From the UHGV virus genome UHGV-0045954: 26,836 bases of DNA. One strand, given 5' to 3'. The DNA is from a virus. The notes under the pieces were generated by a model. The model had not been told where the DNA came from, did not search any database, and worked only from the letters and a program-made list of their open reading frames with translations. The translations under genes and the position numbers were made by a program. Positions 15,825-16,332 of the stretch are shown piece by piece; position 1 is the first letter of the stretch; each line of letters begins with the position of its first letter.

Positions 15825-15850
15825 AAAACAAAACCCGCCGAAGCGGGTTA
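15825..15850 (-). terminator. intrinsic terminator at 3' end of hok mRNA
   Basis: On minus strand AACCCGC-TTCG-GCGGGTT perfect hairpin followed by TTTGTTTTTTT. Confidence 0.7.
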
Positions 15851-15917
15851 CGTGCGGGTGCGTTGAGGATGCCTGACACATCAGAGGTGGCGAGGGATTT
15901 CTCCCCCGCCAGGTCTC

Positions 15918-16073
15918 TTACTCCTCAGGTTCGTAAGCTGTGAAGACAGCGACCTCCGTCTGGCCGGTTCGGATTCGTACCTCGCAGAGGTCTTTCCTCG
16001 TTACCAGTGCCGTCACAATGACGGTTAAACAGATGACGATCAGGGCGATTAACATCGCCTTTTGCTGCTTCAT
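15918..16073 (-). CDS. hok: Hok/Gef-family type I toxin
   Basis: 51-aa product MKQQKAMLIALIVICLTVIVTALVTRKDLCEVRIRTGQTEVAVFTAYEPEE, matches HokD/RelF as recalled; in-frame upstream ATG at 16130 gives a 70-aa extension. Confidence 0.85.
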   Translation of the reverse strand: MKQQKAMLIALIVICLTVIVTALVTRKDLCEVRIRTGQTEVAVFTAYEPEE

Positions 16074-16332
16074 AGCCTGCTTCTCCTTGCCTTTCGGCAC
16101 GTAAGAGGCTAACCTAGATTTGCCGTTCATAGATTGAGCCTCAGATTAATGTTAAGCGTCTTGCAGGACGCGTAATGTTAACTGGGGCTTTTCTCTATCT
16201 GCCTTTTGGTGTTCATGCCTGAGACAGATAGCCTCAAGCACCCGCAGTCATTCTACTTAACTAAGATTTCCCCGCAAACCGTTTTTGTCCGGCACAGTAA
16301 ATATCCAACTAAACCAATGGCGTTCGCTGTAT

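Follow-up and report, generated by a model that had tools for sequence, protein, structure and literature searches.

The small Hok/Gef toxin gene in the nin region of the window, which here means the whole 26,836-nt stretch of the virus genome UHGV-0045954, raises the question of whether it belongs to a complete type I toxin-antitoxin system with its own antisense RNA, or whether it is a remnant of the kind found in E. coli K-12, in which hok loci are interrupted by insertion sequences or have lost their regulatory half to relBE. As judged from sequence comparison and RNA folding, positions 15823..16278 on the minus strand very probably hold a complete, apparently functional hok/mok/sok cassette, and there is similarly little doubt that this cassette is a moron of ~450 bp in the nin region of a Qin-like lambdoid E. 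coli prophage (Table 1). The system, the toxin and the arrangement are all already known; hok/mok/sok is a textbook type I toxin-antitoxin, a close relative has been tested, and the exact sequence occurs in many E. coli genomes, and the locus therefore carries little weight as a discovery. In strain M217, the annotated genome that was checked, PGAP calls the hokD CDS only; beyond this lone CDS, the positions of mok, Sok and the mRNA elements can now be given with base precision.

Table 1. Predicted elements of the hok/mok/sok cassette, with positions in the window
Feature	Position	Strand	Basis or remark
Intergenic	16279..16330		Upstream of the hok promoter
hok promoter	16250..16278	-	Assigned by homology and position; -35 TTTGCG 16278-16273, 17-nt spacer, -10 TAGAAT 16255-16250
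Full-length hok mRNA, ~420 nt	15823..16245	-	Ends approximate: 5' end ~16243-16245, 3' end in T-run past the terminator
tac (translational activator element), GCGGGUGCUUGAGG	16232..16245	-	MFE pairing with 15854-15868
ucb (anti-Shine-Dalgarno box), AGCCCCAG	16182..16189	-	MFE pairing with mok SD region CUGAGGCU
Inverted repeat GCGTC/GACGC between TTAACATTA repeats	16147..16181	.	Upper part of the Sok terminator hairpin
mok-SD/dcb hairpin	16105..16142	-	Apical loop and 5' arm (16135-16122) are the predicted Sok target
mok initiation region	16128..16142	-	SD GAGG 16142-16139, ATG 16130-16128; aligns with annotated mokW and mokC starts
mok, 70 codons	15918..16130	-	ORF list; in frame with hok, common stop codon
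Sok RNA, predicted, ~71-75 nt	16122..16196	+	14-nt 5' tail GCCGUUCAUAGAUU (16122-16135), hairpin 16136-16190, U-tract
sok promoter	16087..16115	+	-35 TTGCCT 16087-16092, 17-nt spacer, -10 TAACCT 16110-16115; inside mok, over the dcb box
hok, 51 aa	15918..16073	-	ORF list and Pfam HOK_GEF; SD GGAG 16086-16083
3' UTR stem-loop, GGCGGGGGA-GAAA-UCCCUCGCC, 9 bp	15889..15910	-	MFE fold; expected 3' protector of the processed mRNA, by analogy with R1
fbi (fold-back inhibitory element), CCUCAACGCACCCGC	15854..15868	-	MFE pairing with tac
Intrinsic terminator, AACCCGC-UUCG-GCGGGUU then UUUGUUUUUU	15823..15849	-	Hairpin and T-run

Identity and setting of the cassette

The 51-aa open reading frame of the original prediction is present, and it matches the Pfam family HOK_GEF (PF01848) with 81.6 bits and E=3e-23, against a cut-off of 22 bits, and PHROG 251 ('MokW-like host killing') with E=2.8e-33. 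The leader upstream of it matches the Rfam model RF01794 on the minus strand, from 16243 to 16068, with 112.4 bits and E=3.9e-25 (gathering score, 59). Judged by their E-values, all three matches are far above chance. The proposal of a type I toxin locus of the hok family that has a leader and a terminator of its own is right, and the locus has its own promoter as well. The encoded peptide is 100% identical to HokD (RelF) of K-12 and has 47 of 51 residues in common with HokW, and the gene identical to it is named hokD by PGAP in many genomes. The Pfam and PHROG matches and the identity to HokD thus mark the product as a small (~50 aa), hydrophobic toxin of the Hok/Gef type. Toxicity of Hok and its neutralisation by Sok have been reported for HokW/sokW (PMC8621323). 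In a preprint (bioRxiv 10.1101/2025.08.07.668861), all Hok coding sequences studied, HokD included, are reported to have lysed cells when overexpressed, with the exception of HokB and one PndA. As a separate observation on the toxin gene, the K-12 hokD mRNA showed only ~6% editing at a Tyr-to-Cys site thought relevant to activity (PMC12214031), and this low editing was counted against a functional reading of the locus.

The annotation of strain M217, whose genome is identical to the window at the locus, agrees with the proposed position in a lambdoid prophage, with the replication/nin genes on one side and DUF968-rusA-Q on the other. The order there is integrase, exonuclease, dicB, (DicF), repressor/Cro, replication genes, small ORFs and hok, followed 3' of hok by the PHROG 1212 gene, DUF968, rusA, Q, a tRNA and the lysis genes. 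The hairpin terminator that had been described at the end of hok is real, with a stem from 15849 to 15832 (7 pairs, 5 of them G-C, and a TTCG loop) followed by TTTTGTTTTTT to 15823, and it is the sole terminator-like site in 15700..16450. The same order of fbi and then a terminator is also found in the R1-type plasmid locus.

If the locus were of the inactivated chromosomal type, it should be truncated or disrupted by an insertion sequence. When aligned with 933W, a Rac-like phage and K-12 hokC, the locus showed no IS element near the hok frame and no missing leader or fbi; between the promoter and fbi it is colinear with the 933W and Rac loci, which are intact, and this explanation was rejected. 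The K-12 hokC-mokC-sokC (gef) locus serves for comparison. It has the same architecture as the window, with an in-frame mok of 69 aa and with sokC beginning 9 nt into mok, it scores 118 bits against RF01794, and its toxin is ~80% identical to the window Hok. However, it has a short Sok hairpin without an 18-nt insertion and a tail allele other than that of the window, and IS186 lies 20 nt past its stop codon and has removed fbi, which is intact in the window.

The layout of the Qin relBEF locus, in which relB-relE lie directly upstream of hok and mok and sok are missing, was looked for at the locus and not found; a leader, mok and sok are there instead, the flanks are without relBE, and the statement that this is not the relBEF arrangement stands. 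The relationship to that locus is nevertheless close. The toxin of K-12 Qin hokD is identical to the 51 aa of the window, the DNA is 98% identical over window positions 16087..15824, a segment that starts 14 nt ahead of the hok ATG and includes the terminator, and both copies sit at a corresponding point of the prophage, with a DUF968 gene (ydfU in K-12) and Q downstream. The homology covers this segment only and then restarts in the DUF968 gene. In K-12, relB-relE stand in place of everything on the upstream side of 16087, namely the promoter of hok, tac and ucb, the beginning of mok and the greater part of sok, and the downstream gene is rem, whereas it is the PHROG 1212 gene in the window. 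Since the homology begins only at 16087, the window copy retains the leader, mok and sok that are missing from K-12 hokD, and by this alignment it is the complete form of the K-12 hokD locus. It would thus show the state of that locus before relBE took over the regulatory half.

The closest relative of the cassette, hokW-mokW-sokW of the Stx2 phage 933W and the Sakai prophage Sp5, has 92% nucleotide identity over the cassette, the same order of elements with a 70-aa in-frame mok and a 51-aa hok, and a sokW with the same promoter hexamers and spacing and the same long Sok hairpin with an 18-nt insertion. The two loci differ at four residues of the Hok C-terminus (TAYEPEE in the window, VDYESEK in HokW) and at 9 of the 14 positions of the Sok 5' tail, which covers mok codons 2-5 (GCCGUUCAUAGAUU in the window, GUUCAGCAUGGAUU in SokW). 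Furthermore, 933W is without a hairpin-plus-T-run terminator aligned past fbi, and its cassette lies near the right end rather than in the nin region. The annotation of prophage copies goes back to the genome record of 933W (AF125520). It has been reported that the Sp5 hokW-sokW is a working type I toxin with an RNA antitoxin, which is partly RNase III- and Hfq-dependent, and that it promotes lysis and phage release after mitomycin C treatment (PMC8621323).

The order of elements in the window is also that of hok/sok (parB) of plasmid R1 and its IncF relatives: tac, inner stem, ucb, Sok hairpin, mok SD, target, dcb with the sok promoter, hok SD, hok, 3' stem-loop, fbi and terminator. In the IncFII locus, the tac/fbi pairing is found in the MFE fold and mok is in frame, as in the window. 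The R1 system is plasmid-borne and has an established role in plasmid maintenance. Its toxin is only distantly similar, HokW and R1 Hok being 44% identical (PMC8621323).

The locus is widespread, and many complete E. coli genomes have it with 100% identity over 581 nt. There are 305 records that match it at 99% identity or more, and of 5,426 complete E. coli genomes, in which matching places number 12,581, a total of 2,616 have a copy that spans 80% or more of the query; in two genomes, IS200C is inserted in this same locus. Among 114 IMG/VR loci, homology to the window ends mostly at 16260-16299 upstream and at 15820-15849 downstream, and the flanks of the window-type allele are of at least 20 different kinds upstream and at least 15 downstream. 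From these borders, the locus behaves as a discrete and apparently mobile moron of ~450 bp.

Predicted mRNA switch and antisense RNA

The original prediction had noted an in-frame ATG at 16130 that would give a 70-aa extended form of Hok and had called this atypical for the mok-hok organisation. The open reading frame exists, and it is mok itself, in the same layout as in mokW/hokW and mokC/hokC. The label is unsupported because mok is in frame in these two loci, in the IncFII locus and in about half of the relatives. For instance, mokW and hokW of 933W (70 and 51 aa; 1656..1868 and 1713..1868 of stretch L001) have a common stop codon, as do mokC and hokC of K-12 (16751..16960 and 16751..16903), and in an IncFII plasmid locus, whose R1-type Hok has 52 aa, a mok of 71 aa lies in frame. 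Both ORFs were callable in 41 related loci, drawn from 66 genome stretches; of these, 20 have mok in frame and 10 have it in the +1 frame, whilst in 11 it is a short +2 leader peptide (19-29 aa). By its sequence, the window thus holds an upstream, overlapping mok frame with its own Shine-Dalgarno sequence, ~57 nt before hok.

A simple scan for sigma-70 consensus promoters over 15700..16450 gave none at its threshold, the hok -10 element being below it, and the hok and sok promoters were both assigned by homology for this reason. The hok -10 hexamer TAGAAT is also found in 933W and Rac, and it is TATAAT in K-12 hokC. With the promoter at 16250..16278, the leader, which had been put at ~250 nt, shortens to ~170 nt (16243/16245..16074).

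The MFE fold of the mRNA from 16245 to 15826 (-179.1 kcal/mol) holds both the 5'-3' fold-back of tac on fbi and the pairing of ucb with the mok SD. The predicted tac/fbi duplex has -21.5 kcal/mol, compared with -15.3 (z=-2.9) when the 3' UTRs were shuffled, and in 39 of 44 loci, made up of the window and 43 relatives, a tac/fbi pairing of -18 kcal/mol or stronger lies ~45-50 nt past the stop codon, where shuffled 3' UTRs give about -15. The MFE fold, the duplex energy and this recurrence all argue for a long-range locking of tac by fbi. Within the nascent 40 nt, tac is predicted to fold into a metastable hairpin (16241..16215, -16.9 kcal/mol), and within the first 75 nt it pairs with AAAAGCCCC in the tac/ucb stem, matching the Rfam consensus. 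The predicted folds, these fragments and the Rfam model are therefore consistent with a mok SD sequestered by ucb, with alternative stems and with a metastable 5' hairpin.

The comparison of related loci points in the same direction for parts of the structure. The leader helix adjoining tac covaries across 64 loci, with AU in 36, UA in 13, GU in 9 and GC in 5 at one pair. RNAalifold on a MAFFT alignment of the 64 leaders recovered the first helix only, because indels between short and long hairpins broke the register. The SD/dcb hairpin alone folds with -13.5 kcal/mol (z=-3.3) and folds alike, with a 7-8-nt loop, in three other alleles; its core pairs are conserved and its inner pairs covary (CG 22, AU 18, UA 2). 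Counting of pairs gave modest support for this hairpin, 65.6% of the cells being paired compared with 63.4% in shuffles, and the structure-aware Rfam score was relied on instead. When the truncated mRNA was folded in silico, the mok SD stayed closed in the MFE fold, the open form not being the MFE. Therefore, the conformational switch is not reproduced by thermodynamics alone, and we infer the opening step from the conformational-switch model of R1 (PMC9841398), which the elements of the window match.

The original prediction had left open whether a Sok-like RNA is encoded on the plus strand. From its sequence, Sok can be placed by homology to the tested sokW. Its promoter has hexamers and spacing identical to those of the 933W/Sp5 sokW promoter, and the primers for the promoter-less mutant (primer YO-421) alter exactly this -10 element; that mutant unmasked the toxicity of HokW (PMC8621323). 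The start at ~16122, which is placed by homology, lies 7 nt past the -10 element and 9 nt into mok, which corresponds to the 5' ends given for sokW and sokC in their annotations, and the 3' end is predicted at ~16192-16196. The predicted fold (-30 kcal/mol) has the shape of sokW. The sequence thus suggests an antisense RNA with a promoter inside mok, complementarity to the mok initiation region and a terminator hairpin. The match of the locus to the Rfam 'sok' model was rejected as proof of the Sok strand, since this model matches the hok-sense strand here, in K-12 and in 933W, even where sokC and sokW are annotated on the opposite strand, and it therefore identifies the hok leader and not the antisense RNA. 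A literature search for 'sokD' or 'mokD' found nothing relevant.

The assignment of Sok also accounts for the inverted repeat GCGTC-CTGCAA-GACGC that had been described in the leader. The repeat is present, although at 16171..16156 and not at 16167..16182, and it is flanked by the TTAACATTA direct repeats at 16181..16173 and 16155..16147. The idea that it could form a fold-back or antisense-target structure was incomplete, the repeat being no fold-back element in its own right but the apex of the predicted Sok terminator hairpin. The hairpin is firmer on the Sok strand (-29.5 kcal/mol, compared with -19.1 kcal/mol on the hok strand) because the TTAACATTA repeats pair with each other there through G-U pairs. 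The region corresponds to the 18-nt insertion relative to K-12 hokC/sokC, which is common to 933W, Rac and many other loci, and related loci form two length classes of this hairpin, ~33 nt and ~52-55 nt; loci with the long-class insertion occur in Escherichia, Kluyvera and Pseudocitrobacter. The reading of this repeat as an independent mobile or fold-back element was rejected, since it belongs to the Sok hairpin and the insertion is common to relatives.

The mechanism that we propose is borrowed from the R1 (PMC9841398) and hokW-sokW paradigms and was checked at the level of sequence and folding only. The minus-strand promoter would give a stable mRNA of ~420 nt, and the 5' tac box would be kept in the metastable hairpin during its synthesis. 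In the finished RNA, tac would pair with fbi near the 3' end and ucb would hide the mok Shine-Dalgarno sequence, and these two pairings would make the full-length RNA neither translatable nor open to binding by Sok. Slow trimming of the 3' end to the GAAA stem-loop would strip fbi; in R1, mutating the last stem-loop of the truncated mRNA abolishes toxicity (PMC9841398). With fbi lost, tac would pair with ucb and the mok SD would shift into the SD/dcb hairpin, so that the 70-codon in-frame mok could be translated, with the translation of hok coupled to it, and Hok, as a 51-aa membrane peptide, would depolarise the inner membrane. The unstable Sok, transcribed from the plus strand (promoter 16087-16115), would pair through its 14-nt tail with the mok start region, and RNase III would cut the duplex; Sok would thus block mok and therefore hok. 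Hok would be made when sok transcription stops or lags, for which loss of the prophage, shut-off of transcription by an infecting phage and prophage induction are possible triggers.

Possible roles of the cassette

Most likely, the cassette serves to retain the prophage selfishly, to assist lysis at induction, a function shown for hokW-sokW, or to do both. A more specific explanation, which is possible although rather doubtful, is that the main role is the timing of host lysis at induction and not addiction: early rightward transcription would pass through the co-oriented cassette and collide with the convergent sok promoter, Sok would fall, and Hok would be made and aid release through membrane damage. 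The hok gene is co-oriented with the replication, nin and Q genes and lies upstream of Q, so that delayed-early transcripts would be expected to cross it, and in Sp5 mitomycin C decreased sokW RNA and increased HokW in a way that depended on RecA, with deletion of the locus halving phage release (PMC8621323). However, the cassette of 933W/Sp5 is located elsewhere, near the right end, and read-through from the early genes is thus not what the Sp5 work tested. In addition, a read-through transcript would not allow the normal formation of the hok terminator or of the tac/fbi fold.

Less probable than this is a locus that is intact in sequence but silent, a decaying or neutral passenger with no function in killing, addiction or lysis, as the chromosomal hok loci of K-12 would be. 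According to work cited in bioRxiv 10.1101/2025.08.07.668861, the intact chromosomal hokA (E. coli C), hokB (K-12) and hokC (ECOR24) gave no post-segregational killing and no response to rifampicin. Furthermore, both promoters of the window cassette are weak matches to the consensus, and the IS200C insertions mentioned above suggest that loss of the locus is tolerated. A silent passenger is nevertheless unlikely, as each regulatory element is conserved with zero disabling changes, and as complete identity in many genomes, together with narrow border zones among the 114 IMG/VR loci and variable flanks, argues for selection on the whole module. The activity of its closest relative, hokW-sokW, also speaks against it (PMC8621323).

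It is likewise improbable that the cassette serves abortive infection or phage exclusion, in which a lytic phage would stop host transcription, Sok would decay and Hok would kill the cell before the phage cycle is complete. In favour of this role, protection against T4 has been reported for hok/sok on a high-copy plasmid (cited in bioRxiv 10.1101/2025.08.07.668861), and hok genes are ~four-fold enriched in prophages according to the same preprint. Against it, the protection was seen at high copy number only, and the preprint found hok not to be enriched beside defence systems.

Alleles of the Sok tail

The one point of modest interest is the Sok tail, which offers a simple idea on how cross-talk between hok/sok systems might be avoided in poly-lysogens. 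In a scan of loci with identical flanks, the stretch of 20 nt that separates the mok SD from dcb was found to occur in discrete versions. The version of the window was present in 71 of 120 IMG/VR loci and that of 933W in 40, while a one-base variant of the 933W version accounted for 6 and rare versions for 3. The two main versions differ at 8 bases, which are clustered in mok codons 2-5, i.e., in the first 13 nt of Sok. Cognate pairs of tail and target have a predicted pairing energy of -22 to -23.5 kcal/mol, and the window allele reaches -5 to -9 kcal/mol with the 933W, L016 and hokC alleles. All four alleles have the same shape of target hairpin with a 7-8-nt loop.

These predictions raise the possibility that this patch of 12-13 nt, which is at once mok codons 2-5 and the 5' tail of Sok, is a specificity switch with discrete and mutually orthogonal alleles, a suggestion that we regard as tentative, with the balance slightly against it. 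If it were true, several hok/sok prophages and the chromosomal hokC could share one cell without cross-protection, and each element would keep its own addiction or lysis-timing switch. The SokW and SokC tails, which have 9 nt in common, give intermediate values for predicted cross-pairing (-14 to -16 kcal/mol). The N-termini of Mok encoded by this patch are hypervariable and include MNGKS, MLNTC, MSHKC, MLCTC, MHDNI and others.

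Strand of the Rfam match and codon 47 of hok

In the window, the match to RF01794, which Rfam names "sok antitoxin", lies at 16068..16243 on the minus strand, that is, on the hok-sense strand, where it covers the mRNA leader. The same orientation was found for hokC of K-12 (502..654 on the minus strand of stretch L003) and for hokW of phage 933W (1544..1718 on the plus strand of stretch L001), and in both cases the sok gene (sokC, sokW) is annotated on the opposite strand. A match to RF01794 should therefore not be read as a guide to the strand of the antisense RNA.

Codon 47 of the window hok encodes Tyr in the context TACG, which was also present in 33 of 43 related loci, and a hard-coded Cys codon occupied this position in 9 of the 43. 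It has been reported that the residue aligned with Tyr47 becomes Cys by RNA editing in HokC, HokD, and HokE and is encoded as Cys in the DNA in HokA and HokB, with editing of approximately 6% at the equivalent site of K-12 hokD (PMC12214031).

Features in and around the hok locus and other RNA genes of the prophage
Feature	Coordinates	Strand	Position or basis
92-aa gene, PHROG 1212 (unknown function)	15472..15750	-	directly downstream of hok terminator
hok codon 47 (Tyr47), TACG	15930..15938; TAC 15935..15933, G 15932	-	sequence
Unannotated 59-aa ORF	16333..16512	-	directly upstream of hok promoter
sRNA STnc100, copy 1 of 2	11986..12174	-	downstream of Q
sRNA STnc100, copy 2 of 2	12450..12643	-	downstream of Q
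tRNA	12997..13069	-	downstream of Q
DicF	22231..22282	+	76.7 bits; in leftward dicB operon

Genes flanking the hok cassette

Because the PHROG 1212 gene, whose place is held by rem in the Qin prophage of K-12, comes next after the hok terminator, this intrinsic terminator lies inside the delayed-early operon, with the replication genes before it and Q after it, and it could serve as a putative nin-type terminator. On the other side of the cassette, the 59-aa ORF is preceded by a strong Shine-Dalgarno sequence (GGAGGAATAATG), encodes a hydrophobic product, and is located in a stretch with a G+C content of 33-37%. No family match was obtained for it in Pfam or PHROG, and the only homologues recovered were close ones from E. 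coli and Shigella, mostly with more than 90% identity and all annotated as "hypothetical". This ORF may be a separate moron encoding a small membrane protein.

Disrupted cassettes, other RNA genes and N runs

In two E. coli records, NZ_CM136163.1 and NZ_CM136161.1, an otherwise identical cassette is cut in two by an IS200C insertion, and the match extends over 1,293 nt instead of 581 nt; these are natural disrupted variants of the window hok locus.

The surroundings of the other RNA genes of the prophage were taken from the PGAP annotation, and its two STnc100 copies scored 132 and 138 bits.

The window also contains N runs of 92 bases (806..897) and 74 bases (17382..17455), bordered by homopolymers of G or C (15 and 27 bases). 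Both runs are missing from the otherwise 99.9% identical sequence of E. coli strain M217, and they therefore look like assembly-gap or masking artefacts. The hok locus is clear of both.
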